Notes: a model not told the origin generated them from the letters alone. DNA of 64,000 nt from Myxococcota bacterium (GCA_965250285.1 OZ252299.1:4512001-4576000), one strand, 5' to 3'. Shown: positions 8,218 to 62,072, counted from the stretch's first letter. Numbers and translations: made by a program.

Positions 8218-9644
8218 GTGCGTCGTCTGGCGAGGTCGATGCCGTCGTCGTCGGCTCGGGCCCGAACGGGCTCGCAGCCGCCGTTCGACTCGCGGAGGCG
8301 GGGCGATCCGTTCTCGTCCGCGAGGCGAACGAGTACATCGGCGGCGGTCTGCACAGTGAAGAGATGACCCTCCCGGGCTTCCTCCACGACACGTGCTCGG
8401 CCGTCCACCCGATGGGCATCCTCTCGCCCTACCTGTCGCAGCTGCCCCTCGACAAGCACGGCCTCGAGTGGGCGGCGTCGGACATCTCGTTCGCGCACCC
8501 GCTCGACGATCGCCCGGCGGTCCTGCATCAGAAGGACATCTCGCTCGTCACGGAGCAGCTCGGCCCCGATGCGAAGCGGTACGAGCGACTCGTTCGGCCC
8601 TTGGCGAAGAACGTGCCCGCGCTCGTCGCCGACTCGCTCGCGCCGCTTCGAATCCCTCGCGCGCCGATCTCGTTCGCGCATTTCGGGCTGCTCGGCGCGC
8701 TCCCGGCTCGGACACTCGCGCGTCTCTTCTTCGAGGACGAGCCGGCGCGCGCGCTGGTGGCGGGGTGCTCGGGCCACTCGATCCTGCCGCTGACGCGCCC
8801 CTTCTCGGCGGCCGTCGGCCTCATGTTCATCTTGACCGGCCACGAGGCCGTCTGGCCGGTGGCGCGCGGCGGCTCACGCGCGATCGCGCAGGCCCTCGCG
8901 TCGTATCTCGAGTCGCTGGGCGGGCGAATCGAGACCGGCGTACCCGTCGACTCGATCGCCGAGCTACCGCGGGCGCGCGCCGTCTTGTTCGACACGTCGC
9001 CCCGCGAGCTGGTTCGGGTCGCCGGCGACGAGCTGCCGGCTTCGTACAAGCGGCGCCTTGGCCGGTATCGCTACGGCCCCGGCGTCTTCAAGCTCGACTG
9101 GGCGCTCGATGGGCCGATCCCGTGGAAGGACGAGCGCGTGACGATGGCGTCCACCGTGCACGTCGGCGGCACCCTCGACGAGATCTCCGCCTCTGAGAAG
9201 GCCGCGTTCATCGGGCAGCACACCGATCGCCCATACGTCATGGTCTGCCAGCAAAGCGATCTCGATCCGTCGCGTGCGCCGGAAGGCAAACGAACCGGGT
9301 ACGCGTACTGTCACGTCCCGCACGGCTCGACCGCCGACATGACCCAGGCGATCGAGAGCCAGATCGAGCGGTTCGCGCCCGGCTTCAAGGACCGTATTCT
9401 CGAGCGCCGCACACTCAGCCCAGCGGGGCTCGAAGCCATGAATCGAAGTCTCGTCGGCGGAGCGGTCACGGGCGGCGTCGCCGACGCATTCCAGCTCTTC
9501 ACGCGGCCTGTCGCACGACTCAACCCCTACACGACACCGAACCCGCGCGTGTTCATCTGCTCGGCCTCGACGCCGCCGGGCGGTGGTGTCCACGGCATGT
9601 GCGGGTACTGGGGTGCCGAAGCGGCGCTGAAGAGACTTCAGTAG
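8214..9644 (+). CDS. Phytoene dehydrogenase-like NAD(P)/FAD-dependent oxidoreductase
   Basis: DAVVVGSGPNGL, PGFLHDTCSAVHP and CSASTPPGGGVHGMCG; TTG start overlaps the previous stop. Confidence 0.9.
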   Translation: MSASSGEVDAVVVGSGPNGLAAAVRLAEAGRSVLVREANEYIGGGLHSEEMTLPGFLHDTCSAVHPMGILSPYLSQLPLDKHGLEWAASDISFAHPLDDRPAVLHQKDISLVTEQLGPDAKRYERLVRPLAKNVPALVADSLAPLRIPRAPISFAHFGLLGALPARTLARLFFEDEPARALVAGCSGHSILPLTRPFSAAVGLMFILTGHEAVWPVARGGSRAIAQALASYLESLGGRIETGVPVDSIAELPRARAVLFDTSPRELVRVAGDELPASYKRRLGRYRYGPGVFKLDWALDGPIPWKDERVTMASTVHVGGTLDEISASEKAAFIGQHTDRPYVMVCQQSDLDPSRAPEGKRTGYAYCHVPHGSTADMTQAIESQIERFAPGFKDRILERRTLSPAGLEAMNRSLVGGAVTGGVADAFQLFTRPVARLNPYTTPNPRVFICSASTPPGGGVHGMCGYWGAEAALKRLQ

Positions 9645-9840
9645 GGCGAGCCGCGCCGCCCACGAGCGCTCGATCGACGACGCGCAACGAATCGATCACT
9701 CGAAGTCTGCGACTGGCCTCGGGGCTCACGCGGCACTCGGCCACTTTCGGAGCAGCAAGCACACTCGGTCGTCTCGCTCCGAGCCCTGATCGGTTCTTCG
9801 CCGAGAAGCCGACTTAGGCGCTTGCCCACGTCGACCCGAC

Positions 9841-10317
9841 TCAGGTCTTCGGACGCCGCAACCTCGCGGCCTCGTCGTCGACGTCGTGGCGCCGTCGAAT
9901 CTGCAGGATCTGCTGCGCGATGACGTCGGGGGTCCAGCTGTACATCGGATCGGCCGGCTTGGCTGTGGAAGGCTTCTGGCACATCGGGCGTCGCCGGCCC
10001 CACAAGAGGAGATACGGACACTTCTCCTCTTGAGCCACTCGCACCTCGATCGACACGGGGTACGAACCCTCGGTGTGCTCGCCACAGATCACGATGACCT
10101 GATCGACGCTCCGAATCACGGCGCGCAGGCGCTCCTCGCCGCCTTTGTCTGCGGTCGACACCGTCGACGTCGCGGTGACGTCGAAGCCCGACGCGGCTTC
10201 GGCCGCCTGGGCGAGGAGCAGATTCAGCAAGTCGCCGTCGTGCTCGAGGTCGCAGCTGGCATACACCCGAACGTTGACACCCGCATCGCCGGGCTCCGAG
10301 AGATCGTGTCTGGTCAT
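9841..10317 (-). CDS. TIR-like domain protein (MTH538/ThsB/DUF1863 type)
   Basis: [23 protein letters not shown]...[15 protein letters not shown]...[21 protein letters not shown]; the putative catalytic Glu is retained. Confidence 0.75.
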
Positions 10318-37108: not shown

Positions 37109-37807
37109 ATGTCTACCGAAGACTTCCTACCCGACGAGACCACGCTCGAAGCCCTGGGCGCACTGCCGGACGACGAGCCGGTCGTGATGCTCAACCTGCT
37201 GAAGTACTCGGATGACGGCGGCGAGGCCTACGCGAAGTACGGCCGCATCGCGTGGCAGCAGATCAAGAAGCGCGGAGGCCGCATCCTCTACGACGGCGCG
37301 CCGCTCGTCACCGATCCGGCGGCGGGAGACTGGGATCGGGTGATCTTCGTCCAGTACCCCAGCCGCGCCGCGTTCATCGACATGATGCGGGACCAGGACT
37401 ATCGCGAGGGTCTCCCTCATCGCAGGGCCGGGCTCGAGCGCACGGTCCTGTATGCGTTCGAGCGCGCTCCCGGGGGACCGCCCTTGGAAGCCGTGAAGCC
37501 CCGCTCCGACGAGGAGATCTTCGTCCTCAACCTGCTGCGCTTCGAGCCGGAGGGCGGCCGCGAGGAGTACCAGAAGTACGGCGACGTGGTGCTCCCGATG
37601 ATCCTCGAGCGCGGAGGCGGGCCCGCGCTCCTCCTCGACGCGCAGCTGCCGCTGGTCTCGGAGGAGACCTGGGAGGATCTCTACCTGGTCCGCTATCCGG
37701 ACCTCGGCAGCTTGCAGGAGATGGTCGCTACCGAGGCGTGGCAGACGGCGAACCAGGATCGAACTCGCGGTCTCGACCTCACCTGGGCGTTCCCGACGCG
37801 ACCCTGA
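37109..37807 (+). CDS. Tandem DUF1330-like (dimeric alpha-beta barrel) protein
   Basis: Two repeats: VVMLNLLKY..YAKYG..WD..VQYPS and FVLNLLRF..YQKYG..W..LVRYP. Confidence 0.8.
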   Translation: MSTEDFLPDETTLEALGALPDDEPVVMLNLLKYSDDGGEAYAKYGRIAWQQIKKRGGRILYDGAPLVTDPAAGDWDRVIFVQYPSRAAFIDMMRDQDYREGLPHRRAGLERTVLYAFERAPGGPPLEAVKPRSDEEIFVLNLLRFEPEGGREEYQKYGDVVLPMILERGGGPALLLDAQLPLVSEETWEDLYLVRYPDLGSLQEMVATEAWQTANQDRTRGLDLTWAFPTRP

Positions 37808-37841
37808 GTCCCGCAGCGCACCCGATGCAGCAGGAGGCCCG

Positions 37842-37919
37842 ATGACGGACTTCATCCGTACGCCGGACGAGAACTTCGACGATCTCGCCGACCTGCACTG
37901 CATCCGGGGCGAGGCGTGA
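37842..37919 (+). pseudogene. 25-codon remnant of a haloalkane dehalogenase N-terminus
   Basis: GGAGG RBS, then MTDFIRTPDENFDDLAD, matching MESIRTPDERFANLPD at 34859; its stop overlaps the next GTG. Confidence 0.6.
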
Positions 37920-38809
37920 GAGTCGTGGCCATCGTCCTGCTCGTCCTCGTGCTGGTGATGTGCTCCGCGATGCTCTGGCAGCACGCGCGCTACGTGGGCA
38001 TCCGGCGGGACCTTCTCCACGATCGCCAGGCCACTTTCTACTCGTCGGACGTCTTCCATACGCTGGTGTTCCTCCGAACGGCGCCGGAGAAGGACGTGAT
38101 CGAGGAGGTGCGGGCGTTCAAGCAAGCGACCGAGGGCTCGGAGGCGTCGTGGATCTACGCAGGGAAGTCCGCTTTGGCGGCTCTCTCGTCGTCGCAGATG
38201 GGCGAGAACGACTGGACCGCCGTCGTGCTCCTGCAGTACCCATCACGCGATGCGTATGCTCGACACGCCGAGTCGACGTCGATGAAGGCGGCGCTCGCGC
38301 GGTTCGAGGAGACGTACACTCAGGGTTTTCGTCGCGGGGCCCTCAGCAACGCCATGATTCCGCAGGGCCTGCTCGCGTACCGACTCTTCCAGCTCGTCAC
38401 GTTCCGTCCTTCGTACTTCCCCTTCGCGAAGGCCAAGGACTACGAGCGATTTCCCGAGGCGGAGGAGTTCGCCCGCCAGCTCCTCGAGGAGAAGGACCTC
38501 GGCCGCGAGGCCCTCCTCATCGTGAACCTGACGAAGGCCGGTACGCCCGAGGAGCAGGCCGCCGATCGCGCGTACGGGGCGTCGATGCTCGGCGCCATGG
38601 CCGAGGCCGGCTACGGCCCCATCCATGCGGGGCGACCGGTTCGACTCGAACGCGACTACGACTTCGACCTGGTCCTGCTCGTCTTCTACCCCGGCGTCGA
38701 GTTCTTCGCCGAGATGATGAAGAGCGAGTTCTATCAGTCGATCTTCGGCGACAAGCAGGTCGGCGATACCCAGGCCAACATGACGGTTCCGATCCTGAAT
38801 CGGCTCTAG
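37916..38809 (+). CDS. Membrane-anchored hypothetical protein (DUF1330-like repeats)
   Basis: N-terminal TM then LWQHARY, DW..VLLQYPSR, IVNL and GYGPIHAG; paralogous to 39750..40664. Confidence 0.75.
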   Translation: MRVVAIVLLVLVLVMCSAMLWQHARYVGIRRDLLHDRQATFYSSDVFHTLVFLRTAPEKDVIEEVRAFKQATEGSEASWIYAGKSALAALSSSQMGENDWTAVVLLQYPSRDAYARHAESTSMKAALARFEETYTQGFRRGALSNAMIPQGLLAYRLFQLVTFRPSYFPFAKAKDYERFPEAEEFARQLLEEKDLGREALLIVNLTKAGTPEEQAADRAYGASMLGAMAEAGYGPIHAGRPVRLERDYDFDLVLLVFYPGVEFFAEMMKSEFYQSIFGDKQVGDTQANMTVPILNRL

Positions 38810-38844
38810 AGGCGACGGGCGTTCGCTCGAAACCGGAGGTGTCC

Positions 38845-39708
38845 ATGGCCGAGACGGACGTCGGCGTCCCGAATCCCAGCACCGTGTCGGTGTACGGTGT
38901 GGACCACTCACCGTGGGTCCAGGCCGTGTTGCTCGGCCTCCAGGAGCGTGGGATCGAGTACCGGACGAGGACCATCCCGCCGCTCGCGGTCTTCCTGCGT
39001 TCCGGGATCCTGATGCCCGCTGCCAGCATCAACGGCGGCTCGTGGATGCTCGACTCCGAACGGATCCTCGTCGCCCTGGGGTTCTCGGAGGTTCCGCGCG
39101 AAGTCCGTCGGGAGCTGACGGTGGCCTTCACGCGGTGCGCCGCGCACCGCCGTGACGACATCCCGGATTTCTGGCGACGGTTCGGCCTCGTGCGCGACGA
39201 GGAGCCCTCCTGGGCGCGGCGCCACTGGAACTTCTTCTGGCGGGCCTTCGCTGCCTTCTACTTCTTCTGTGTCCTCACCGTCGCCCGACGCGCGTTGGGT
39301 CCGTCGACTCCCGAGCAGACCGTTCAGCACTTCTCCACTCTCCAGAAGCGGCTCGACCCCGAGGCGGGGTACTTCGGGGGCGAGCGTCCGGACACCGTCG
39401 ACCTGCAGCTGTTCGGCATCGTGCAGATGTTGGGCAGCATCCCGGGCCCGCCTCTCGGCGTGCTGCGCGAGAAACCGGCGCTCGAGCCGCTCCGCAGCTG
39501 GATCGCACGGATGCAGCAGCGGTTCGAGCACCACCCGGGCCTCTACAGTGGGCCCTACTTCGAGCCCCTGCTGCCGGCGCCCGAGACCGCTCGCACCTCG
39601 GAGCGCGTCGCCTTCGGGTGCGGCGCCGCCCTGATGTGGCTGGCGTTCCCGCTCACCTTCCCCACGGCGCTTGTCTACTTCGTCAGCAACCGGCTGCGTG
39701 GCCTCTAG
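38845..39708 (+). CDS. GST-like protein with C-terminal TM segment
   Basis: GGAGG RBS; SPW, DSE and YFGGERPDTVDLQLFG. Confidence 0.7.
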   Translation: MAETDVGVPNPSTVSVYGVDHSPWVQAVLLGLQERGIEYRTRTIPPLAVFLRSGILMPAASINGGSWMLDSERILVALGFSEVPREVRRELTVAFTRCAAHRRDDIPDFWRRFGLVRDEEPSWARRHWNFFWRAFAAFYFFCVLTVARRALGPSTPEQTVQHFSTLQKRLDPEAGYFGGERPDTVDLQLFGIVQMLGSIPGPPLGVLREKPALEPLRSWIARMQQRFEHHPGLYSGPYFEPLLPAPETARTSERVAFGCGAALMWLAFPLTFPTALVYFVSNRLRGL

Positions 39709-39749
39709 CGCACGGGAATCGGTGACTTCAGCTCTAGCTCCACAGCCTC

Positions 39750-40664
39750 CTAGAGCTTCGAGAGCACCGGGATCGTCGCGAACGCCAGCGTGTCGCCGAG
39801 CTGCTTGCCGGAGGCGATCCGGTTCATGAAGGTGCTGCTCAGCATCGCCTGCATGTGGTCGATCCCCGGGTAGTAGACCGCGGCGAACGACGAAAACCGG
39901 CTGTCGCCCTCGACCGTGACGGCCCGTCCCATGTGCATCGGACCGTATGCCCCTTCGGCCATGCCGCGCACCATCTGGTAGCTGTAGGCGCGGTCGGCCG
40001 CCCGCTGATCGGACGTGCCCGGTAGGAGCAGGTTGAAGATCACGACCGCGTCCTCGCGCACGTCCCGGTACGCATCGAATCTCCCGAGCATTTCTTTCCC
40101 CCGTTCCCGGAACTCGGGGAGGGCGTCTTCTTCGCTCACCGGCTGGAAGGGGAGGATGTTGTCCCGGCGCCGAGCGATGTCGAGCAGTCGCACGCCTCCG
40201 AGACCGAGTGGGATCAAGAGGTTGGTGAGCGCCGATCGCTCGAACCCATGGACGTGGCTGTGCTCGCACTGCTGCAACGCATGCTTCAGCTCGGGGCCAT
40301 TGTGACTTCGGTCGAAAGCCTTGCGCGACGGCCAGTGGGCGAGGATGGCCGCACTCCAGTCGTTCTCGAGCTGGGTCGAAGGCACCATGGTCTGCACGAC
40401 GAGACCGGCGTAGACGAGCTGCCCGCCGCCTGCCTCGATCGCGTCGCGCACGGCGCGGAGAGCTGCGAGCTCACCATCACGCCCCGCTTCATCGTTCACC
40501 CTCAGCAGCAAGACGCCGTGGAAGGTGTGGCCGCCATGCAGAAGAGGCTGGCGGTCGTCGACGCGCTCGCGTCGGATCTCGAGGTATCGGAAGTGCTGCC
40601 ACAGCGCGGCCAAGACCAGGCCGACCACGGCGAGGGCAAGAAGCAGGAACGCGATCTTCAGCAC
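39750..40664 (-). CDS. Membrane-anchored hypothetical protein, paralog of 37916..38809
   Basis: Shares LWQH.RY, DRQ..FH, YAG, NDW, ADRAY, MAE..YGP.H.G, YPG and KQ.GDT...T.P.L with 37916..38809. Confidence 0.75.
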   Translation of the reverse strand: MLKIAFLLLALAVVGLVLAALWQHFRYLEIRRERVDDRQPLLHGGHTFHGVLLLRVNDEAGRDGELAALRAVRDAIEAGGGQLVYAGLVVQTMVPSTQLENDWSAAILAHWPSRKAFDRSHNGPELKHALQQCEHSHVHGFERSALTNLLIPLGLGGVRLLDIARRRDNILPFQPVSEEDALPEFRERGKEMLGRFDAYRDVREDAVVIFNLLLPGTSDQRAADRAYSYQMVRGMAEGAYGPMHMGRAVTVEGDSRFSSFAAVYYPGIDHMQAMLSSTFMNRIASGKQLGDTLAFATIPVLSKL

Positions 40665-41019: not shown

Positions 41020-41339
41020 GGCGGCTCCTTCTCGATCGGGCGCAGGGGGTGCGCCGGTGTGTGTTCGGGGTCGGAGCGAGCGGCGGAATGGCCGCGACGC
41101 ACGCACGACATCGGTGAGATCAGGCGGGCTCCTCGTCCGGGCCTCCTGCCGTGCAGCGCTCCAGCCGTGATTCTAGTGAGTCGAACCAAAATATGAAAGA
41201 ACTTCCGATTGACAGTACTATCTATTTTTGAGAGGTTGCGGTGGGCCGAAGCAAGATCCCCACACCTGCAACACACCCCGTGGAGGTTCTTCGCAGCCAG
41301 ACCCAGAGTCCCGCCACCCTCACGACTGGGAGCCTCCCG

Positions 41340-42074
41340 ATGAAGCAGATCCTGATCGCGGCCCTCGTGCTCGTCCTTCCCGGCACCTCGACTGCGCAGG
41401 ACGTAGGTCACGAGCTGCTCGACGCCTCGGCCGGTTTTCCGATCGTGGTCTGGGGAAACCAGGAGATCACGACCCCGGAGTACGACGCGCTGGTGCTCCC
41501 GCCAGGATGGCTCCGCAACGAGCCGCGTGAGGGTGTCGGTCAGGCAGGCCAGTTCCTCCGCTCCCCGGGTCTTCCCGCCGACGGCCAGTTCACGACCCAG
41601 GAGCTGTACGGCTTCACCTGGCTGCATCAGGCGTCGGTCGTGGGCGTGGGCGGCAACCTCGACCCGGGCGGCCTTCTGACGGCGAACACCGTCGAGAAGC
41701 ACCACGAACTCGTGTGGCCAGCCGGCAGCAACGCGACCGTGCTGACGGCACCTGGCGGAGAGCAGTACATCCTCGTCTCTCGCGACGCGCAGCGCACGTC
41801 CGACACGCCGACCCTGCCGCCCGGCTGGACCCTGGATGTCAGGCTCGTTGCGTCGGACATCCTCGTCCAACTGCCCCTCCAGACCACGGTCATTCGGGCG
41901 GACAACGAGGACTCGTTCCAAGGCCCCGTCCCCGCCAGCGTCCTTCCGGTCCCCGCGCCCGTCCCCGTTCTGCCGACGCCCGGATGGGTCGTGATCGGCG
42001 CTTGTCTTCTCGCGAGCGGCGTGGCGCTCGCAAGCACAGCCGCCACGCCTCCGGGACTCATGAAGGACGGTTGA
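41340..42074 (+). CDS. Secreted protein with IPTL-CTERM-like tail
   Basis: Signal peptide MKQILIAALVLVLPGTSTA; tail PVPVLPTPGWVVIGACLLASGVAL. Confidence 0.75.
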   Translation: MKQILIAALVLVLPGTSTAQDVGHELLDASAGFPIVVWGNQEITTPEYDALVLPPGWLRNEPREGVGQAGQFLRSPGLPADGQFTTQELYGFTWLHQASVVGVGGNLDPGGLLTANTVEKHHELVWPAGSNATVLTAPGGEQYILVSRDAQRTSDTPTLPPGWTLDVRLVASDILVQLPLQTTVIRADNEDSFQGPVPASVLPVPAPVPVLPTPGWVVIGACLLASGVALASTAATPPGLMKDG

Positions 42075-44320: not shown

Positions 44321-46333
44321 TCAGCTCGCCTGGGCGCTCCAGCCGAGCTCGCGGGCCCGCGCGCGCGCCTGCGCGGGGATGTCGGCGGCCACGAGCTGCG
44401 CATGCATGACCTGCACGCCGATCATGTGGTTGAAGACCGCATCGAGTGTGTTGCGCGTGGCGACGGTCGTCCCCGGTGCATCGTGCTGGGCGAAGAGTCG
44501 GGCGACGCCCTCCGCAGAGAGGAGCCCCGCCGCTTCGATCGCGCCCGGAGAGAGATGGCGGTCGGCGAGAGCCTGCATGGCCTTCCACTTCTCGGGGTCC
44601 GTATGCGCCGGCGGCGCCATGAAGGCGAACTTCTCGCGTTCGTAGAGGACGCGCGGGAGCAGGCCGCGCATCGCCTCGCGCAGCACCCACTTCTCGGTTC
44701 GGCCCTTGATTCGAACGGTGGGCGGAAGCGTGGCCGCGACCTCGGCCAGGTGGTGGTCGAGAAAGGCGGGGCGAGCCTCCATCGAGTTCGCCATGTCGAC
44801 CCGGTCTCCGCCCCAGGTCAAGATCTGGCCCTCGAGCATCGTCTTGATCCACACGTACTGCGCGCGGTCGAGGGGATGGCGGCCCTTCATCGCGTCGGCG
44901 TCGAGCGCCTCTGCAATCGCCCGACCCGGCTCATAGCCGGCCAGGTCGGCTGCGATGTCGGGGTGGAGAATGCCCGGCACATGCGTCGAGGCCGCGAGCC
45001 AGGGCTGAAGGCAGGCGGGCGTGAAGCCCACTCGGTCGACGAGCGCGGCGTCGGTGACCGTGTCCTCGGCCAGCATCGCGCCCTTGAAGAGCGCGTTCTT
45101 CTCGTGGAGCGTCGCCTCCCACTCGCGTCGATCGGCTTCGGGCAGATCGTCGAGCCCGTGCAGAAAGAGGTCGTTTCGAAACGCGGGATAGCCGGCAAAG
45201 AGCTCGTCCGAGCCTTCGCCGGTGACGACGACCTTGTATCCGGCGTCGCGGACGTGCCGGCTCATGAGCAGCTTGGCCACGGCGAGCGTGTTGTAGATCG
45301 ACCGCTCGGTGTGCCAGAGCGTCTCTTCGAAGTGGTCGTAGAGATGCGTGGCATCGAGGCGCAGCACATCTTGATCGGCGCCGACCGCTTCGGCCATCTC
45401 GCGCGCGATGGGCGTCTCGTCGTACTCCGCGCTGTCGAAGCCGATCGTGAAGGCTTTGACCGGCGATTGCTGGGCCGCCGAGGCCAGCCCGAGGATCGAG
45501 CACGAGTCGATGCCGCCGGACAGGTAACAGCCGACGGGGACGTCGGCTTCGAGCCGGAGCTGCACGGCCTCGAGGAGCCCCGCGCGCACCGCCTCCACGC
45601 ATTCGTCGTCCGAGAGCTTCGCGTGGCCGCCCTTCTCGGGGAAGTCGATGTCCCAGTAGCGGCGCTCCTCGACCGTGAGTCTTCCGTCCCGGCGGCGGAC
45701 GCGGACCGCATGGCCGGGTGAGACCTGGCGAACGCCTGCGAAGGCCGTCGTGCCGGGGACGATCGTCTGCATCAGCTGGTGGTAGACGCCCTGCGGATCG
45801 AATCGACGCGGCACGTCGGGGTGGGCGAAGAGCACCTTGAGCTCGGAGCCGAAGACCAGCGCGTCGTCGGTCGCGACGTAGTAGAGCGGCTTGATCCCGA
45901 AGCGGTCGCGCACCAGCGTGAGCTCGTCCTCCTCGCGGTCGTAGACCGCGAAGGCGAACTCGCCGCGCAGGTGTTCGAGGGTGGCGTCGATGCCGAGGCG
46001 CGGCGCCATGTGGAGGACCAGCTCCGAGTCGCTCTTCGTGACGAACCGGGCCCCCCGCGCAGTGAGGTCCGCCCGGAGTCGCTTGTAGTCATAGAACTCG
46101 CCGTTCTGGGCGAGCAGCCAGCGGCCGTCCCGGCTGACGAAGGGCTGGCGGCCACGCTCCTCGTCGAGGTCGATGATCGACAGCCGCGCGTGGCTCATGC
46201 CGACGCCGTCCATCGTCTTCCAGCCGAAGCCATCGGGACCGCGGTGGTATTGGATCGCCGCCATCGCGACCAGGGTGTCGGGGTCGACGGGGCGCGCTCG
46301 GTCGGCGTGGAAGACGCCAGCGATGCCACACAT
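44321..46333 (-). CDS. asnB: Asparagine synthase (glutamine-hydrolysing) family amidotransferase
   Basis: MCGIAG, HRGPDG, RLSIID, NGE, RDRFGIKPLY, LSGGIDS, TGEGSDELFAGY and E.R.AFLDH. Confidence 0.93.
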   Translation of the reverse strand: MCGIAGVFHADRARPVDPDTLVAMAAIQYHRGPDGFGWKTMDGVGMSHARLSIIDLDEERGRQPFVSRDGRWLLAQNGEFYDYKRLRADLTARGARFVTKSDSELVLHMAPRLGIDATLEHLRGEFAFAVYDREEDELTLVRDRFGIKPLYYVATDDALVFGSELKVLFAHPDVPRRFDPQGVYHQLMQTIVPGTTAFAGVRQVSPGHAVRVRRRDGRLTVEERRYWDIDFPEKGGHAKLSDDECVEAVRAGLLEAVQLRLEADVPVGCYLSGGIDSCSILGLASAAQQSPVKAFTIGFDSAEYDETPIAREMAEAVGADQDVLRLDATHLYDHFEETLWHTERSIYNTLAVAKLLMSRHVRDAGYKVVVTGEGSDELFAGYPAFRNDLFLHGLDDLPEADRREWEATLHEKNALFKGAMLAEDTVTDAALVDRVGFTPACLQPWLAASTHVPGILHPDIAADLAGYEPGRAIAEALDADAMKGRHPLDRAQYVWIKTMLEGQILTWGGDRVDMANSMEARPAFLDHHLAEVAATLPPTVRIKGRTEKWVLREAMRGLLPRVLYEREKFAFMAPPAHTDPEKWKAMQALADRHLSPGAIEAAGLLSAEGVARLFAQHDAPGTTVATRNTLDAVFNHMIGVQVMHAQLVAADIPAQARARARELGWSAQAS

Positions 46334-46344
46334 GGGACGGACTC

Positions 46345-47418
46345 CTACCGGTAGGTCTTCAGCATGGCCGAGAGCAGCGCCATGCGGATGAAGACCGCGC
46401 CGCGAGCCTGCGCGAAGTACCAGTTGTGAGGGGTGCGGTCGAGATCACGGGCGAGCTCCTCGCCGCGAGCGAGGGGGTGGAGCACGATGGCGCCGGCCTT
46501 GAAGGGAGAGCTCGCGTCGAGCCGGAACCGTGCGCCCATCGACTCGTAGTCGTCGCCCTTCCAGGCGATCGCGTTGATGTAGACGGCGTCGAGCTCGGGC
46601 AGCACGGGCTCCAGCTCGTTGACGACCGAGAAGCGCAGCCCCGCCTTCTCGAGCTCCTCCCGCTGGTCGGACGAGAAGGGCTCGGGCTCGTCGCTGATGA
46701 TGTCGATCTGCTCGATGTTGGCCGCGAACTGCGAGAGCAGGATGAGCAGGCTGCGAACGGTGCGCATCTGCGAGGGGACACCCACGATCCCGATTCGGGG
46801 TGGCGCCTCGACCCCATCTTCCGCGAGGTCCGGACGCCACTTGAGCAGGGCGTAGAGATCGGCCAGTGCCTGGGTGGGATGCTCGTCGATCCCGTTGCCC
46901 GCGTTGATGATCGGAACGCGGAGCGAGTCGAGCATGTCATAGACCGAGTGCTCGTCGCTGTCACGCAGCACGACGACGTCACCATAGTGGTTCAGCATCT
47001 CGGCGATGTCAGAGAGCGACTCGCCCTTGGCGAGCCCGGTGGAGAGCGGGTCGGTGATCGACATGACGTCGCCGCCGAGACGATGCCAGGCGCTCTCGAA
47101 GGAGAGCCGCGTCCGCGTGCTGGGCTCGTAGAAGGCGCTGACCAGGATCTTGCCCGTGAGCGGGCGGCTGATCACCTGGGGCTGTGTCTCGTAACGGGCG
47201 GCGAGCCGCGAGAGCTGCACGATCTGGTCGCGGTCGAACTGGCGGGCCGAGATCACCGGTCGGTCCGAGATCTCGAGCAGCGGCGCGAGATTCTCGGCGA
47301 TCGACTCGATCAGCTCTCGCGGGCGCTCGAAGCCCTGGATATCGAGCTCGTGCTCCTCGCTGGCGAGCCCGTCTTCGAGCGCAAGCTCGAGTGTTCTCCG
47401 TTTCTTCGGGTCTACCAC
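46345..47418 (-). CDS. Aspartate carbamoyltransferase-like protein with divergent acceptor site
   Basis: FYEPSTRTRLSF, KGESL, NAGNG..EHPTQ and HPLAR present; YINAIAW replaces the usual RxQxER. Start uncertain (47418 or 47448). Confidence 0.85.
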   Translation of the reverse strand: MVDPKKRRTLELALEDGLASEEHELDIQGFERPRELIESIAENLAPLLEISDRPVISARQFDRDQIVQLSRLAARYETQPQVISRPLTGKILVSAFYEPSTRTRLSFESAWHRLGGDVMSITDPLSTGLAKGESLSDIAEMLNHYGDVVVLRDSDEHSVYDMLDSLRVPIINAGNGIDEHPTQALADLYALLKWRPDLAEDGVEAPPRIGIVGVPSQMRTVRSLLILLSQFAANIEQIDIISDEPEPFSSDQREELEKAGLRFSVVNELEPVLPELDAVYINAIAWKGDDYESMGARFRLDASSPFKAGAIVLHPLARGEELARDLDRTPHNWYFAQARGAVFIRMALLSAMLKTYR

Positions 47419-47534
47419 AGGCGTCTCCCGCGGGCGTCGCGGATCCACAGCACCACGAGGATGACGGGCGCGAGGGTCGCTACGACAGTCGCGAGGGTCA
47501 CCAATGCGCTCAGGAATCCGACGGAGGCTGTCAT
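47412..47534 (-). CDS. 40-aa single-TM peptide
   Basis: GAAGGAGA RBS; MTASVGFLSALVTLATVVATLAPVILVVLWIRDARGRRLW; overlaps the next gene. Confidence 0.7.
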   Translation of the reverse strand: MTASVGFLSALVTLATVVATLAPVILVVLWIRDARGRRLW

Positions 47535-47547
47535 CGTCGTGTCTCCT

Positions 47548-48978
47548 TCATCCTTCGGTTCCGCCGAGTGAAGACCAATCGAAGGGCTCCGGGGCCACAC
47601 GGACAGCGACGCACACGATGGCCATCGAGACGGCCGCCGAGACCAGTGCGGCCACGTAGAAGCCGATCGTCGAGTAGGCGATCAGTCCCGCCGCCGTCCC
47701 GAGGAACATCGCCGCCGACGCACCGACGGGGCTCGCGTTGCGCCAGTAGAGCCCGGTCGCGATCGGCCAGATCGTGCTGGCGACGAACGCGCCCGTGAAG
47801 TGGAGCAGCTCGGCGAGGGTGGCGAGCCTCGGCATGCAGAGGGCCCAGGTGAGCACGCCGATCCCGAGCACGATCCAGCGCGCCGCACGCGCGAGCTCTG
47901 CGGCGTCGGCATCGGGCCGGAGGTGCCCCTTGTAGAGGTCGGTCAGCACGAGATCGGAGGTGGCGGCGAGCAGCGAGTCGAGGCTCGAAGCGAGCGCAGC
48001 GAAGACGACGATGAAGACGAGGATCGCGCCGCCCTGGCCGAGCAGGTGAGCGGCCACCATCGGCCCGACCATGTCGGCAGACGGCACGTTCAGGCCGAGC
48101 GCGGGCACGGTCAGCGCGACGAACCCCGCGACGATGGGAACCGGGATCCAGAGGGCGCCGGCGATCAGGTAGGCGGGCAGACCCACCCCCTCCCGAAACG
48201 CGAAGGCTCGGCTCCACCAGACATTCGAGTGGAAGATCTCGCCGACACCGAAGAGCAGGTTGTTGAAGAGGAACATGATGGCGGCGGGGAAGAGCAGATT
48301 GAGGAGCTCGGGGCGCTCGGCCAGGGTGGCCTCGTGCATGCGATCGAAGCCGACGCGATCGATCGCGAGCCACGCCAGCACGCTCACGCCGACCAGGATG
48401 ATGACGGTCTGGATGAAGTCGGTTCCGATCACGGCGCGCAGGCCACCGAGCAACGTGTAGGCGACGCAGATTGCCACGATGACGGTCATGCCGAGGCGGT
48501 ACTCGATGCCCGTCAATGCGTGGATCAGGACCCCGCCCGCCGTGCCCATCGAGATCAGCCAGCCCAGGGCGTAGAAGAGCGAGATGGCGAGGAAGATCCG
48601 CCAGGCCGTCTTGCCGTAGCGGAGCCGAATGAAATCGCCGCTCGTGAAGCCGCCGGGCATCAGGCTCCGGATGCGGCGGGCAAGCGGAGCGAAGAGCAGC
48701 AGGCCGACGGCGCCCAGCGAGTAGCCGATCATGCCCCAGACCCCGAGCTGCAGCGCCAGCTGGGGAGCGGCCATGGTCGTGTTGCTCGTGACCCAGGTGG
48801 CCATCGCGGTGGCGACGCCCAGCGCCAGCCCCACGCGACGCCCCGCGAGCATGAAGCCCTCGAGATCCTCGGTCTCCCGCCCGAAGTACCAGCCGAGCGC
48901 GACCCACAAGACACTGAACGCCGCGAGGATGCCCCAGCCGACGTTCGGATCGAGGATGGCGGTCTGGACTTCACTCAT
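47548..48978 (-). CDS. Sodium:solute symporter (SSS; urea/amide transporter-like)
   Basis: FMLAGR, MATW, FIRLRYG, YTLLGGLRAVIGTDFIQ and ASSLDSLLAA; about 13 TM segments. Confidence 0.9.
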   Translation of the reverse strand: MSEVQTAILDPNVGWGILAAFSVLWVALGWYFGRETEDLEGFMLAGRRVGLALGVATAMATWVTSNTTMAAPQLALQLGVWGMIGYSLGAVGLLLFAPLARRIRSLMPGGFTSGDFIRLRYGKTAWRIFLAISLFYALGWLISMGTAGGVLIHALTGIEYRLGMTVIVAICVAYTLLGGLRAVIGTDFIQTVIILVGVSVLAWLAIDRVGFDRMHEATLAERPELLNLLFPAAIMFLFNNLLFGVGEIFHSNVWWSRAFAFREGVGLPAYLIAGALWIPVPIVAGFVALTVPALGLNVPSADMVGPMVAAHLLGQGGAILVFIVVFAALASSLDSLLAATSDLVLTDLYKGHLRPDADAAELARAARWIVLGIGVLTWALCMPRLATLAELLHFTGAFVASTIWPIATGLYWRNASPVGASAAMFLGTAAGLIAYSTIGFYVAALVSAAVSMAIVCVAVRVAPEPFDWSSLGGTEG

Positions 48979-49747
48979 GCTCGGCCTTTGCGAGTGCCTC
49001 GACCTCGTCGATCGCTTCTGCCGTGGAGAGCACGCGTGCGTAGCGATCCCTCAGCGTGGTGATGGTGGCCTCCTGGAGCTCGGGCGTGACGGTCGCGCAA
49101 CCGTCACCGATCAGTGTCACATAGTAGCCGAGGTCGCAGGCGTCCCGGATCGCGGTCGAGACGCACTCGTTCGAGTACACCCCCGTGACAAAGAGCGCGT
49201 TGACGTCGAGATTGCGCAGGACATAGTTCAGGTTGGTCGAGTTGAAGACGCCGGACGCCGTCTTGCTGATCACGATCTCGTCGGACGCGGGGGCCACGAT
49301 CTCGACGAACTCCGCCTCCTTCGACCCGGGCGGCGCATGGAGACCGAGGCGCTTGTGGCCCGGGCTGCGATCGCGGCCGTTCGCGGTCAGCGAGGCGATG
49401 CGGGTGTGGATGACCTCGAGCCCTGCGCCTCGAAATGCGTCTTGCAGCCGGCGCACGTTCGGCAGCACCACGTTTTCGAGCCTTCCGAAGTAGTACTCCT
49501 GGGCCTCGAGCGGCACCCCCGAGGCCTCGACGCGCGCAAAGACACCGTGGCCGCGAACGGCGTCGAGGTACTGCATGTCGATGCAGAGCAGCGCCGTATG
49601 CGCCCCCCGAAGCGAACGCTGAAGCGCCGGCGTCTCGGTGAAGGCCTCCCGATAGGGGGCCTTCAGCGGGTCGACGTTCAGAAACGACGGGTGATCGAAT
49701 CGGACGGTCGGCTGACCCAGCGGTCCCTCTTCGTCCTCGTCGTTCAT
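48971..49747 (-). CDS. Cysteine hydrolase (isochorismatase/amidase family)
   Basis: Catalytic triad motifs IDMQ, ISKT and NECV. Confidence 0.9.
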   Translation of the reverse strand: MNDEDEEGPLGQPTVRFDHPSFLNVDPLKAPYREAFTETPALQRSLRGAHTALLCIDMQYLDAVRGHGVFARVEASGVPLEAQEYYFGRLENVVLPNVRRLQDAFRGAGLEVIHTRIASLTANGRDRSPGHKRLGLHAPPGSKEAEFVEIVAPASDEIVISKTASGVFNSTNLNYVLRNLDVNALFVTGVYSNECVSTAIRDACDLGYYVTLIGDGCATVTPELQEATITTLRDRYARVLSTAEAIDEVEALAKAEHE

Positions 49748-50985
49748 CGCGCCAGCTCCAGCATCGTATGGAGAAGGACGTTTGCGCCCCGGGCGATGTC
49801 CGCGGGCGAGGTCCACTCTGCGGGCGAGTGGCTGCGGCCCCCCCGGCTTGGGACGAAGATCATGCCGGCGGGTGCAACCCGCGCGATCATCTGCGTGTCG
49901 TGGGCCGCGCCCGAGGGCATGGGCAAGGGTGAGACGTCGAGTCGGTCGCAGGCGCTCTGCACCGCCGAGAGGACGCGTTCGTGACATGCGACAGGCTCGA
50001 TCTCGCTCACGAGCTCGAACTCGAAGCCGAGGTCACGGCGGCGTGCGATCGCCGAGAACGTGCGTCGGAATGCATCCGAAAGGGTGTCGAGCGTCTGCGG
50101 GTCGGTATCCCGCACCTCGAGCGCGAGCCGCGCCTCGCCCGGCACGACGTTCGCCGCGCCCGGAACGAGCTCGATGCGTCCGATCGTCGCGCGACTGCGC
50201 GGGCTGCCGTGCTCTTCGAGGATGCGATCGATCTGGCCTGCGAGCTCGGCGGCGCCCCGGAAGGCGTCCCGCCGCATGTCCATGGGTGTCGTGCCGGCGT
50301 GGTTCGCTTCGCCGATCAACCGCACGTCCCATCGGAAGAGGCCGGTGATCGCGTCGACCATCCCAATCGTCGCGCCGTCGCGTTCCAACACGGGACCCTG
50401 CTCGATGTGCAGCTCGACGAACGCGTGAATCGAGCCCGGCGGCCGCTCTGCGGTGAGGGCATCGCGCGCGTGGTAGCCGCATTCGCCCATCGCAGTCTCG
50501 AGGCTGACCCCGTCGAGATCGCGAGCGAGCGCGATCGACTCGGGCGTGAGCTGCCCGCTCATCGCCTGCGAGCCCAGCATGCCGCCAAAGCGCCCCTCTT
50601 CGTCGGAGAACGCGACGAGCTCGACCGGCCGCTCGAGCGGCACGCCGTTCTCGACCAGCACCCGGAGGACTTCGAGACCGGCCACGACGCCGTACGCGCC
50701 GTCGAGCTGGCCGGCGTCGGGAACCGTGTCGAGATGGGAGCCCGTCATGACGCAGGGCACGTCGTCGAGCTCGGTATCGGGCCAGCGTGCGCCGAGGTTC
50801 GCGGCCCCGTCGACGCGCGTCTTCAGGCCGCACTCATCGAAGCGATCGACGAGCCACCGACGTGCGGCCATGTCGGCGGGGGTGAAGGCGCGCCGATTCA
50901 GGCCGGGCGTGTCGCCCGCCCCGATGCGAGCCAGCGCGGCGAGGTCGGCTTCGAGGCGCGCGGCGTCGATGCAGAGCTCAGCCAT
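49744..50985 (-). CDS. Zn-dependent N-carbamoyl-amino acid / allantoate amidohydrolase (M20 family)
   Basis: GSHLDTVP, DEEGRF, ELHIEQG, HAGTTP and SGAAHD. Confidence 0.92.
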   Translation of the reverse strand: MAELCIDAARLEADLAALARIGAGDTPGLNRRAFTPADMAARRWLVDRFDECGLKTRVDGAANLGARWPDTELDDVPCVMTGSHLDTVPDAGQLDGAYGVVAGLEVLRVLVENGVPLERPVELVAFSDEEGRFGGMLGSQAMSGQLTPESIALARDLDGVSLETAMGECGYHARDALTAERPPGSIHAFVELHIEQGPVLERDGATIGMVDAITGLFRWDVRLIGEANHAGTTPMDMRRDAFRGAAELAGQIDRILEEHGSPRSRATIGRIELVPGAANVVPGEARLALEVRDTDPQTLDTLSDAFRRTFSAIARRRDLGFEFELVSEIEPVACHERVLSAVQSACDRLDVSPLPMPSGAAHDTQMIARVAPAGMIFVPSRGGRSHSPAEWTSPADIARGANVLLHTMLELAR

Positions 50986-51508
50986 GCGCGGATCCCGTGG
51001 AAGCCCCCACCGCGTCCTTTCCCTCCGAGGCGGCGCCTCGGACGACGACGACGATCGTCCCCGCGAACACGAAGAGCCCGACCGCAAAGAAGGCGAGCGC
51101 GCGCCCAAGGGGATGGTGTTCGACGTCGACCTGCACGGGCTCGCTCGGGATCGACCCGTCGCCCGTACGAAGCCGGTAGGTATAGGTGCCGTCGCTTCGG
51201 CCGGTGAGCGTTGTGGCCTGATCCTGGCCCCGGTACACGACCCGTGCATCGCCGAAATCCGCCGAGCTCGACTCCTCGAGCACGGCGGGACCGCCGAACT
51301 CCCAGGACAGCTGGTAGACGCCATCGCTCGACTGAGAGGTCGAAGCCGTCAGCCTCGGGGCTGCGCCTGCATCCGTCGCGGCGATGAGCGGTGCCACGAG
51401 AAGGAAGGCCGACGCGATCAGGAGAGAGGAGGCGGCTCGCTCGAGCCTTCCGGTCGCGGGGGCTGGCACGACGAGCGAAGCGGCTGTGCTCCTCTGGCCC
51501 AATCTCAC
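50978..51508 (-). CDS. Membrane-anchored FN3-like protein
   Basis: Signal peptide, YQLSW...YRG...DGTYTYRLR and a C-terminal TM; overlaps the next gene start. Confidence 0.65.
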   Translation of the reverse strand: MRLGQRSTAASLVVPAPATGRLERAASSLLIASAFLLVAPLIAATDAGAAPRLTASTSQSSDGVYQLSWEFGGPAVLEESSSADFGDARVVYRGQDQATTLTGRSDGTYTYRLRTGDGSIPSEPVQVDVEHHPLGRALAFFAVGLFVFAGTIVVVVRGAASEGKDAVGASTGSAHG

Positions 51509-51966: not shown

Positions 51967-54000
51967 TCAGCAGATCGACTTCCGGCGTTGGACCGCCCAC
52001 GAGCCGACAGCAAGAAAGCCGCTCACCAAGCAAACGAATCCCGATGCGCCCAGCGCGGGGACCGGCTCTGCGGGTGAGAGGGCCTCGCAGGCGTTCTCGA
52101 GGTGCGTCGCGGCGTCATTCAGCGTCGACACATCGAGCGCGAGCGAGGCGCTCTGGATCTCCGCGGAGATCGCCGTCCAGGCCGCACTCGAGATCTCGCC
52201 CTGGGCCACGGCCTCTTGACCGGCCTGCTCGGCCTGCGAGATCAGCTCGCCGATCTGCGTCACGTCCGCTGCGGCTGAGTCGGGGCACGTTGCGCGGAAG
52301 GCAAAGGCATTCGTCGCGCGATCCGAGGCGGCACAGACCGCGTCACGCGACAGCAGATCGTGTCGGCGCACGGCGTACTTCGTGATCCCGCCGGATAGCG
52401 GACCGGGCGTCAGGCCCAATGCGATGGAGAATGGACGCCGCGCCGGCGAGTTGCCGATATAGAGCGACCCATCCGCACCCGACGTCAAGACTGCGATGCT
52501 CTCTTCGGTGCCGACCGTGAAGGAGCGGACGGCCCCGGTCTCGCGGTCGAGGGTTCCGTAGCCGACCGCCACCGCAAAGGGAATGCCGCTCAGAACAGGG
52601 CCGATCGCGGCCTGGAAGCCCAGCGCGTTTGCACCGATGGAAGGCAGGCTCAGCTTGAACTCGGTGTAGTCGGCTGGGAAGCCCTCGAACAACCCGGCGG
52701 TGCCTGCCTGCCAGCCCTGGACCCCGGTGGCGCCCTCGTCGAACACCTGGGTGATGAAGTCGCGCGAGGGAGCGAAGAGGGCATCGTCGTCGGACGATAC
52801 GCCCACCGATCCCACGATCTGCTGGCCCACGTCCAGCTCCCAGATCGTCGAACAATCCTGAGCCGAGATCGCCAGCAGCTTGCCGGCGTCGTCGCCCACG
52901 TAGATTCGACTCCCGTCGGCCCGCAGCGCGGGCGTCGAGGCCGAGCCTCCCTGGAACGAAGCGTGGCATGCCTCTGTCACCTGGAAGCTGCCGCCGTCCG
53001 GGACGATGTCGAGCCCGTACAGGGCGCCGAGCTCCGAGACTCCGTCGACGGTGCCATCCTCTGCGTCGGGCGCCGTCGCTGCGATCCAGAGGCGACCGGT
53101 GAAGGGGTCGATCGAGAACATGTTGGTCACTTCCCTGCCCGCGCCCTGTGCGCCACTGACGAAGGGGGCGAAGGACCCATCAGGGGCGTTCACGAGCGTC
53201 TGCCACTCGTCTTCCGCGGCGGCCACGAGCGTCGGCGGCAGGCTGCCCCCCGCAGCGGGCGACGCCTCACCGGGAAGCTGGAACGGAGCGGTGAGCAGCT
53301 GGGCTCCGGTCGACCGATCGAGGGCGTAGACGAACCCGTCGACGGTGAGCGCAACGATCGCGTCCAGACCCGGGAGGTAGTTGACCCCGAGGACGCCGGC
53401 CGAGGTCGGTGGGGACCCGAGCGAGAGACCAGTGGGGACGTCCCAGATGATCGTCCCATCCGGGCTCACCGAGAGCGCCCGGTCGTAGAGCGCCAGGTAG
53501 ACACGTTGCTCGCCGGGAGCGCTCGGCTCGTCCAGCACCATCGGTGCCGAGGTACCGGGGACGGCGCCGGTCCCGGTGATGGCCCAGCGTCTCGAGCCGT
53601 CGCTGGGATCGATCGAGATCAGGACGACGTTCTCGTAGGGGCGGTAGGGAGAGATGTAGAGATTCCCCGCGTCGTCGATGGCGGGGCCCGTCAGGTTGTA
53701 GGTGGCGGGCTCTGCGACCCACTCGGCCTCGATCACGGGGGCGATCGCTCGCGAGATCTCATCCGTGTTGATCGCGTCCCCATGGATGTTTCGCCAGGAC
53801 TCTCTAGAGGGAACGACCGGATCGTCGTACGGCACCTGGCGGCAGCCGTCTGGGACCCAACTCGTTCGACCGGGAGGATCGAACGACACGACTCCTTGGG
53901 CAGACGCATCCAGTGATGCAGTTGTGGCGCACATGACCGCGCCAAAGAGAATGATCAGCTGAATCAACGTCGTACGCACGGCTGCCTTGCTCGCCTCCAC
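51967..54000 (-). CDS. Secreted PQQ-like beta-propeller protein with IPTL-CTERM-like tail
   Basis: Signal peptide, propeller repeats (DPSDGSRRW, ALDRSTG) and tail PVPALGASG + TM + RRK. Confidence 0.8.
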   Translation of the reverse strand: MEASKAAVRTTLIQLIILFGAVMCATTASLDASAQGVVSFDPPGRTSWVPDGCRQVPYDDPVVPSRESWRNIHGDAINTDEISRAIAPVIEAEWVAEPATYNLTGPAIDDAGNLYISPYRPYENVVLISIDPSDGSRRWAITGTGAVPGTSAPMVLDEPSAPGEQRVYLALYDRALSVSPDGTIIWDVPTGLSLGSPPTSAGVLGVNYLPGLDAIVALTVDGFVYALDRSTGAQLLTAPFQLPGEASPAAGGSLPPTLVAAAEDEWQTLVNAPDGSFAPFVSGAQGAGREVTNMFSIDPFTGRLWIAATAPDAEDGTVDGVSELGALYGLDIVPDGGSFQVTEACHASFQGGSASTPALRADGSRIYVGDDAGKLLAISAQDCSTIWELDVGQQIVGSVGVSSDDDALFAPSRDFITQVFDEGATGVQGWQAGTAGLFEGFPADYTEFKLSLPSIGANALGFQAAIGPVLSGIPFAVAVGYGTLDRETGAVRSFTVGTEESIAVLTSGADGSLYIGNSPARRPFSIALGLTPGPLSGGITKYAVRRHDLLSRDAVCAASDRATNAFAFRATCPDSAAADVTQIGELISQAEQAGQEAVAQGEISSAAWTAISAEIQSASLALDVSTLNDAATHLENACEALSPAEPVPALGASGFVCLVSGFLAVGSWAVQRRKSIC

Positions 54001-55272: not shown

Positions 55273-55360
55273 TGGCGGAGAGAGTGGGATTCGAACCCAC
55301 GGTAGGTTTCCCTACACACGCTTTCCAAGCGTGCGCCTTAAGCCACTCGGCCATCTCTCC
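55273..55360 (-). tRNA. tRNA-Ser(GGA)
   Basis: GGAGAGATGGCCGAGTGG...CACGC TTGGAAA GCGTG, long variable arm, GGTTCGAATCC and encoded CCA. Confidence 0.97.
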
Positions 55361-55583: not shown

Positions 55584-55674
<91 letters not shown>

Positions 55675-61984: not shown

Positions 61985-62072
61985 TGGCGGAGAGGGTGGG
62001 ATTCGAACCCACGAGGGCTTGCACCCTGGCGGTTTTCAAGACCGCTGCCTTCAACCGCTCGGCCACCTCTCC
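61985..62072 (-). tRNA. tRNA-Ser(TGA)
   Basis: Anticodon arm GCGGT CTTGAAA ACCGC, long variable arm, TTCGAAT and CCA. Confidence 0.97.

Follow-up and report, generated by a model that had tools for sequence, protein, structure and literature searches.

The question raised by this locus is what a carbamoyltransferase with the fold of aspartate transcarbamylase (ATCase) and a glutamine amidotransferase of the AsnB family make together when they are encoded side by side, along with two hydrolases and a transporter. The operon in question occupies positions 44321..51508 of the window, a 64,000 nucleotide stretch from a Myxococcota bacterium (GCA_965250285.1 OZ252299.1:4512001-4576000), and consists of seven intact open reading frames (ORFs), all on the minus strand, joined by four overlaps of 4-8 nt and two gaps of 11 and 13 nt and with a GC content at third codon positions (GC3) of 0.80-0.91. 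The first-pass annotation of the window had described these seven coupled genes and their families, as is borne out by ORF calls and by Pfam and NCBIfam scans, and had suggested that they make, import and recycle an N-carbamoylated amino acid amide. This suggestion is supported by a producer strain, an EctR/CosR-like regulator, osmolyte genes in the neighborhood of relatives and a DUR3-like transporter, and it can be narrowed, with the product and reactions that we infer from sequence below: the operon probably serves the synthesis, uptake and recycling of N-carbamoyl-L-glutamine 1-amide (CGA).

One answer is already given by database annotation, according to which the carbamoyltransferase (CT) would be a second ATCase and its partner an ordinary asparagine synthetase. 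Source names do read 'aspartate carbamoyltransferase', the top fold matches of the CT structure model (pLDDT 89) are all ATCases, with TM values against PyrB of 0.75 by query and 0.85-0.88 by target, and the amidotransferase exceeds the broad TIGR01536 cut-off. In addition to the fold, CT shares with PyrB the carbamoyl phosphate residues S52, T53, R54, T55, K84, R105, H134, Q137, P266 and L267 (E. coli PyrB numbering, here and below) and the α-carboxylate binders R167 and K84. It differs from PyrB, however, in an N-terminal extension of ∼45 residues and in the substitutions R229A, Q231A, D162V, P268A, T228N and S80G, and the position of the RxQxER loop reads NAIAW. In excerpts of PMC4581275, R229 and Q231 of ATCase are described as anchoring the β-carboxylate of aspartate, and RxQxER is said to occur in all known ATCases. 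The motif is absent from 86/86 CT sequences (a few duplicates included), in every one of which GxPxxMRT, YxNxIxW and HPLAR are present; the STRT, HPTQ, GVPSQMRT and YINAIAW motifs of the window CT are those that the first-pass annotation listed and, as it also stated, neither pyrC nor pyrI adjoins the gene.

CT falls below every ATCase/OTCase equivalog cut-off (TIGR00670, 189 < 237; PRK00856, 182 < 263). In a FastTree phylogeny of 148 rows, a kind of check that had been proposed, a branch with support 99 sets the CT family apart from the host PyrB and ArgF. A further check, for a canonical pyrB elsewhere, found one. In the host genome (6.25 Mb, one contig, 95% complete) there are three OTCace-family genes, namely pyrB in a pyrR-pyrB-pyrC arrangement, argF after argB, and the operon CT; canonical pyrB was found in 6/6 genomes checked. 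The host encodes carB and gatB as well, both of which occur in 3/3 genomes checked, and TIGR01536 is also passed by AsnO and XrtA amidotransferases. With equivalog cut-offs missed, pyrB elsewhere, RxQxER missing, a separate clade and gatB present, we have rejected the combination of a second ATCase and a plain AsnB, for which there is hardly any chance. Thirteen library proteins of 354-374 aa with scrambled catalytic motifs also fall inside the CT family in the tree and may be catalytically dead offshoots or database artefacts. At 1672762-1673778 of the host genome lies a NodU/CmcH-type O-carbamoyltransferase, unrelated to the operon.

What, then, is the acceptor? Since CT keeps R167 and K84 but has alanine in place of both R229 and Q231, its substrate should have a free α-carboxylate and a neutral side chain, and because that carboxylate must be free, carbamoylation likely precedes amidation. 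We propose that CT is an L-glutamine N-carbamoyltransferase. Its partner passes TIGR01536 (417 > 267) only, and lies below the cut-offs for AsnB (PRK09431, 259 < 499), AsnO (TIGR03104, 310 < 570) and XrtA (392 < 817). The cluster AsnB proteins form their own clade, apart from the AsnO and XrtA amidotransferases, with support 100/99 in an IQ-TREE tree in which they make up 17/25 rows and the outgroup branches are long. The N-terminal Cys glutaminase motif MCGIAG, intact in the operon enzyme, is conserved in 74/78 asnB homologues, which favors amidation over cyclisation. AsnO performs a like amidation in the synthesis of N-acetylglutaminylglutamine amide (NAGGN), as described in part of PMC8070244, and by this analogy the operon AsnB is proposed to amidate N-carbamoyl-glutamine. 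A second AsnB-family gene of the host (4406010-4407944), 35-37% identical, is placed by the tree as the closest outgroup to the cluster asnB; it stands alone, flanked on one side by a gene for an alanine-rich repeat protein and on the other by one for an ECF sigma factor.

The resemblance to the NAGGN locus, given in the same excerpt of PMC8070244 as MarR PA3458, asnO PA3459, ngg PA3460 and peptidase PA3461, goes further. If the cluster acts as proposed, both use an N-capping enzyme followed by an AsnB-family amidotransferase acting on the α-carboxylate of glutamine to give an uncharged glutamine-derived solute, and both include hydrolytic breakdown and a repressor of the MarR type that is encoded divergently. 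The cluster, however, employs a carbamoyltransferase where NAGGN synthesis employs the GNAT/ATP-grasp enzyme Ngg, and two hydrolases and a transporter where the NAGGN locus has one peptidase; true AsnO, moreover, co-occurs elsewhere in the genome of some carriers. Membership in the NAGGN system was rejected, given the missed AsnO cut-off, the separate clade and an operon with neither ngg nor an M42 peptidase. The cluster works like the NAGGN locus without being a member of it.

The most direct link to a product comes from the organism in which CGA was found. CGA is glutamine that is N-carbamoylated and amidated at C1, so that its chemistry matches the pair of CT and the AsnB-family enzyme, and Ectothiorhodospira marismortui is the only organism reported to make it (PMC3857566, PMC1224877). 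Ectothiorhodospira mobilis DSM 4180 is listed as E. marismortui DSM 4180T in the section of PMC7824335 that we used, and the cluster is present in this CGA producer type strain, in the order sucrose synthase (divergent), MarR, M20, cysteine hydrolase, CT and asnB; a search for RNA runs covering this locus gave no entry. The strain has three OTCace-family genes, argF, pyrB and CT, and a PF02543 search of its genome returned no NodU-type carbamoyltransferase. CT is thus the only spare transcarbamylase found in the CGA producer within the OTCace and NodU families. In a literature search that left most subscription papers and theses outside its scope we found no paper that assigns genes to CGA or links the cluster to it; the 2020 survey of phototroph osmolyte genes names CGA merely as a possible solute in the portion available (PMC7824335). 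For a compound described in 1991, the cluster turns a gap in gene assignment into a two-gene expression test.

In the proposed pathway CT would transfer the carbamoyl group of CarAB-derived carbamoyl phosphate to the α-amino group of L-glutamine, after which the AsnB-family enzyme, like AsnO, would use ATP and glutamine to amidate the α-carboxylate, giving an uncharged solute. A predicted three-part symporter, made up of a DUR3-like SSS protein, a membrane-anchored fibronectin type III (FN3) protein and a 40-aa peptide, would recover the solute, and on recycling the cysteine hydrolase would strip the amide before the M20 carbamoylase released glutamine, ammonia and CO2. In many relatives of the window copy, which itself has no such neighbor, an EctR/CosR-type repressor would likely turn the operon off at low salt. 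We hold it slightly better than an even bet that this is the missing CGA pathway in its entirety, with a new glutamine carbamoyltransferase derived from ATCase, an amidotransferase, two hydrolases and a three-part symporter with an FN3 lid and a 40-residue helix, and that CGA, far from being peculiar to one species, is a nitrogen-rich osmolyte under EctR/CosR control that has been overlooked although widespread, in sulfur oxidisers of soda lakes, in symbionts of lucinid clams and in bacteria of marine sediments.

In order to see how constant the arrangement is we have made use of a pattern scan that gave 173 GTDB relatives and at least 504 metagenomic ones. The best 80 of each were analysed, so that close relatives are favored in the sample, and some loci may be present in both sets. 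Neighbors were annotated through 19 + 97 chosen ORFs out of 345 clusters. The full gene order recurs in 52/62 GTDB and 18/23 metagenome loci with enough upstream sequence, and thus does not reflect chance, and asnB directly follows CT in 74/75 GTDB and 58/58 metagenome loci with room (132/133). Among the 85 loci in which the sequence upstream of CT extends to 4.3 kb or more, all four upstream genes are found in 70, SSS and FN3 are jointly missing in 8, the cysteine hydrolase alone is missing in 3 and both hydrolases in 1, SSS occurs without detectable FN3 in 1, and 2 have no upstream genes. These patterns of joint loss define three blocks: a constant core of CT and asnB, a trio for transport and a pair of hydrolases. 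In a distant member of the family (48% identity) FN3-SSS-CT-asnB is retained and M20 is convergent. The sole exception to adjacency is Thiorhodospira sibirica, with CT alone at the locus (8935-10017) and an orthologous asnB elsewhere; it additionally has true AsnO. This organism is said, in the part of PMC7824335 concerned, to have no annotated osmotic-stress genes, and CT, asnB and AsnO are candidates for its unexplained salt tolerance.

CT is present in 49/55 Ectothiorhodospiraceae genomes, in 5/100 relatives of the host and in 2/400 other random Pseudomonadota genomes. The closest CT relatives sit in records titled 'Spirochaetales/Spirochaetaceae', including one genome placed in the host's own order; these titles may be mislabels and so need not show transfer between phyla.

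An osmotic role is suggested by what surrounds the cluster in its relatives. A MarR gene that we describe as EctR/CosR-like adjoins 35/80 GTDB and 14/80 metagenome loci; NCBIfam and PDB comparisons gave it no name, and the placement follows from the context of its relatives. Four plasmid relatives of this MarR were opened, two of them annotated, both divergent before ectABC, and the best homologue in the host precedes the betaine genes GSMT-SDMT-BCCT. At this host locus (3548454-3552308) the EctR/CosR-like MarR gene directly precedes those for glycine/sarcosine and sarcosine/dimethylglycine methyltransferases and for a BCCT transporter; together they make up a locus for de novo betaine synthesis, and salt adaptation of the host is therefore likely. 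According to excerpts of bioRxiv 845297 and PMC7876524, EctR1 and CosR keep compatible-solute genes repressed when salt is low. A TTWG-N4-CWAA palindrome, which fits the CosR consensus as quoted in an excerpt of PMC8070244, is found in 22/48 promoter regions of the relatives; over 100 shuffles the count was 1.0 on average and never exceeded 4. Genes for betaine synthesis, BCCT, Opu or sucrose, four osmolyte systems in all, occur in 20/80 GTDB and 9/80 metagenome loci, as compared to 0.5% of 11-kb windows drawn at random from the host genome. A scan of the operon itself for promoters and terminators gave signals at chance level. A porin (5 loci) or an unnamed exported protein (6 loci) often adjoins the MarR or BCCT gene at the cluster edge, and is possibly an outer-membrane route for the solute.

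The first of the two hydrolases is the M20 enzyme. It exceeds TIGR01879 (388 bits > 204) and PRK09290.1-5 (499 > 399), is a near-miss for ErtE, an N-carbamyl-L-glutamate amidohydrolase (NF058540, 417 < 520), and has the L-carbamoylase 3n5f as its top PDB match (E 4e-85), with the metal and catalytic motifs conserved. The cysteine hydrolase has distant PDB matches among cysteine, biuret and N-carbamoylsarcosine hydrolases (E ≥ 2.5e-13); the motif Lys and Cys are present in 66/66 homologues and the Asp in 57/66. This enzyme likely removes the C1 amide. The arginine in the LEVRD motif of M20, which we take to bind a free carboxylate, is retained, and the cysteine hydrolase would on that account act first. 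Since the family of the cysteine hydrolase also cleaves ureido bonds, the order of recycling is the weakest step of the scheme.

The transporter offers further clues to the nature of the solute. In profile comparisons the best solved relatives of the SSS protein are three DUR3 urea symporters with E ∼1e-41 (best 3.5e-42), vs 1e-19 for SGLT1. In a hand mapping on the alignment DUR3 residues W93, T98, Y117, W338 and P342 correspond to W62, T67, Y86, W277 and P281 of SSS and are invariant in 39/39 homologues; of these, W93, T98 and Y117 make the largest contribution to the binding of urea by AtDUR3, as stated in a portion of PMC11840088. By the same mapping Y315 is Trp in SSS, which differs from DUR3 at W95, Q124, N305 and Y461, which become T, G, G and L, and at the proton-site residues D312 and E402, which become S and L. 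The smaller residues in place of W95, Q124, N305 and Y461 would make the pocket roomy enough for a ureido compound larger than urea, and SSS likely imports a ureido-bearing solute.

A further difference from DUR3 lies in the predicted partners. The features of the FN3 protein were derived from an alignment of 39 homologues, and its best Atlas cluster is 'fibronectin type III domain-containing protein' (0.96). It never occurs without SSS in the 85 loci with room, and in complex models of SSS, peptide and FN3 protein the FN3 partner scored 0.84, with the best control at 0.00, contact agreement between runs of at least 97% and a partner pLDDT of at least 82. The mark used is reached by 116/157 solved complexes and 2/215 mismatched pairs, rates that hold only roughly here. 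The FN3 protein is thus predicted, from modeling, to be an accessory subunit that binds the SSS transporter. The 40-aa peptide, with M1, D33 and W40 invariant, is found in 66/67 GTDB loci that have SSS upstream of CT, and loci that have lost SSS either lack it or keep a remnant; it is likely a small transporter subunit. A limited check of the SSS literature returned no FN3-capped DUR3-like architecture, and the predicted symporter would be a new one among bacterial SSS transporters.

How firmly does all of this point to CGA? Several observations weigh against it. CGA has been reported from one organism and the cluster is far more widespread, and with CT in most Ectothiorhodospiraceae genomes its presence in the producer is far less remarkable when judged within that family. 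The acceptor evidence fits glutamine, glutamate or another amino acid, as the active-site changes would exclude only aspartate, and the best specific model for M20 is one for hydrolysis of N-carbamyl-glutamate. The TTWG-N4-CWAA pattern was defined after viewing the promoter regions, and the osmolyte queries were chosen after seeing the loci, which include kin that are not independent and are compared with a background of one genome. The window copy itself has no adjacent regulator, no osmolyte neighbors and no CosR-like box within 2 mismatches. Rhodopirellula baltica is listed as a pseudo-ATCase carrier in the relevant part of Barba 2013 (PMC4016543), and a nuclear magnetic resonance (NMR) survey of its solutes gives sucrose, glutamate, trehalose and mannosylglucosylglycerate (MGG), with no carbamoyl compound mentioned in the excerpt (PMC3694870). 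Its putative CT gene, RB13301, was not found in two supplementary files of the salt microarray, in which the neighbors RB13294 and RB13300 are up among > 3000 changed genes, an uninformative result. Finally, a sister pseudo-ATCase subgroup, ureidoglycine carbamoyltransferase (UGTCase), has been shown to be catabolic, as reported in the same portion of PMC4016543.

These points leave room for a different osmolyte of the same class, for instance an N-carbamoyl amide built on asparagine, on alanine or on a diamino acid, or one that has closed to a hydantoin ring, in which case just some hosts would form CGA, through this pathway or a separate one. The changes in CT show merely that the acceptor is not aspartate, neither the osmoregulatory context nor a ureido-type transporter pocket names the side chain, the R. 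baltica NMR list fits, and AsnB-family relatives include cyclases such as β-lactam synthetase and lasso cyclase. Such a product is unlikely, though the likeliest of the alternatives, given that a search of two families gave no further spare transcarbamylase in the CGA producer and that the conserved MCGIAG motif speaks for amidation and not cyclisation.

The first-pass annotation had pointed to similar marine clusters of asnB, a pyrB-like gene and a carbamoylase without proven function, and these match a subgroup described by Barba et al. in 2013 (PMC4016543), called Subgroup 3 in the text, for which no function, substrate or osmolyte link is given in the passages concerned. There the subgroup is described with STRT, HPTQ, HPLA and AIA motifs, marine hosts and a genuine pyrB elsewhere, with a Na+ symporter on one side, a gene annotated 'asparaginase' on the other and an N-carbamoyl-amino-acid hydrolase adjacent. 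The window CT has STRT, HPTQ, HPLA and AIA (AIA/AIS/SIA being the forms allowed), and the operon has the same context of Na+ symporter, asparagine-enzyme gene and N-carbamoyl-amino-acid hydrolase, with the genuine pyrB elsewhere. By motifs and gene context, CT is a member of this marine pseudo-ATCase subgroup; the cysteine hydrolase, FN3 protein, peptide and regulator do not figure in the part of the description available. Table 1 of the same excerpt puts HPLA/AIA under subgroup 1, whereas text and context fit subgroup 3, and the labels look swapped. If the CGA pathway is correct, it would provide a function for a published subgroup that had none and that is misnamed ATCase in databases, a new activity in the family and a five-nitrogen osmolyte predicted in many marine and alkaline bacteria, clam symbionts included.

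The same paper also lends support to a catabolic alternative, in which urea or ureido compounds are imported, the hydrolases and a phosphorolytic CT yield ammonia and carbamoyl phosphate, and AsnB stores the nitrogen as asparagine. The sister subgroup, represented by Rxyl_2847, is a catabolic UGTCase, and an M20 neighbor was linked to hydantoin metabolism (both in the portion of PMC4016543 that we cite). The DUR3-like transporter would fit as well, as would the glutamine synthetase (type I or III), glutamate-synthase-like or glutaminase genes inside the loci of five relatives, which are also compatible with a pathway that consumes glutamine. Rxyl_2847 is, like CT, an ATCase-derived paralogue with an altered 240s loop, but its gene sits, in the excerpt's account, among genes of purine degradation that include those for carbamate kinase and allantoinase, and the CT motifs differ from its own. 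Neither allantoinase nor carbamate kinase was found among the cluster neighbors scanned, and no carbamate kinase (arcC) exceeds the cut-off in 5/5 genomes, host included, so that UGTCase-type catabolism is disfavored. Also counting against nitrogen scavenging are the dispensability of transporter and hydrolases relative to the core of CT and asnB, the osmotic EctR/CosR type of the regulator, and the redundancy that would presumably arise if a single ureido group were served by both a carbamoylase and a phosphorolytic transferase. We regard it as improbable. The genes of the operon are collected below.

Features of the operon, in window coordinates
Feature	Position	Strand	Remarks
Protein with signal peptide, FN3/Ig-like domain and C-terminal membrane helix	50978..51508	-	true start possibly later than 51508
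Peptidase_M20/hydantoinase-carbamoylase	49744..50985	-	ATG at 50985
Isochorismatase-family cysteine hydrolase, 258 aa	48971..49747	-	PF00857
SSS-family symporter, 476 aa, DUR3-like	47548..48978	-	PF00474
Single-helix membrane peptide, 40 aa	47412..47534	-	no Pfam match
ATCase-fold carbamoyltransferase (CT), 357 aa, OTCace_N + OTCace	46345..47418	-	Pfam/NCBIfam
AsnB-family glutamine amidotransferase, 670 aa, GATase + Asn_synthase	44321..46333	-	Pfam/NCBIfam

Outside the operon, window positions 37109-40664 hold genes for three related DUF1330-like proteins, one of them Pfam-confirmed, amid GST-like genes, and similar tails of sorting type are found at the C-termini of the proteins encoded at 41241-42074 and 51967-54000. 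Three tRNA-Ser genes (GGA, GCT and TGA) lie on the minus strand within 7 kb, at 55273-55360, 55587-55674 and 61985-62072.

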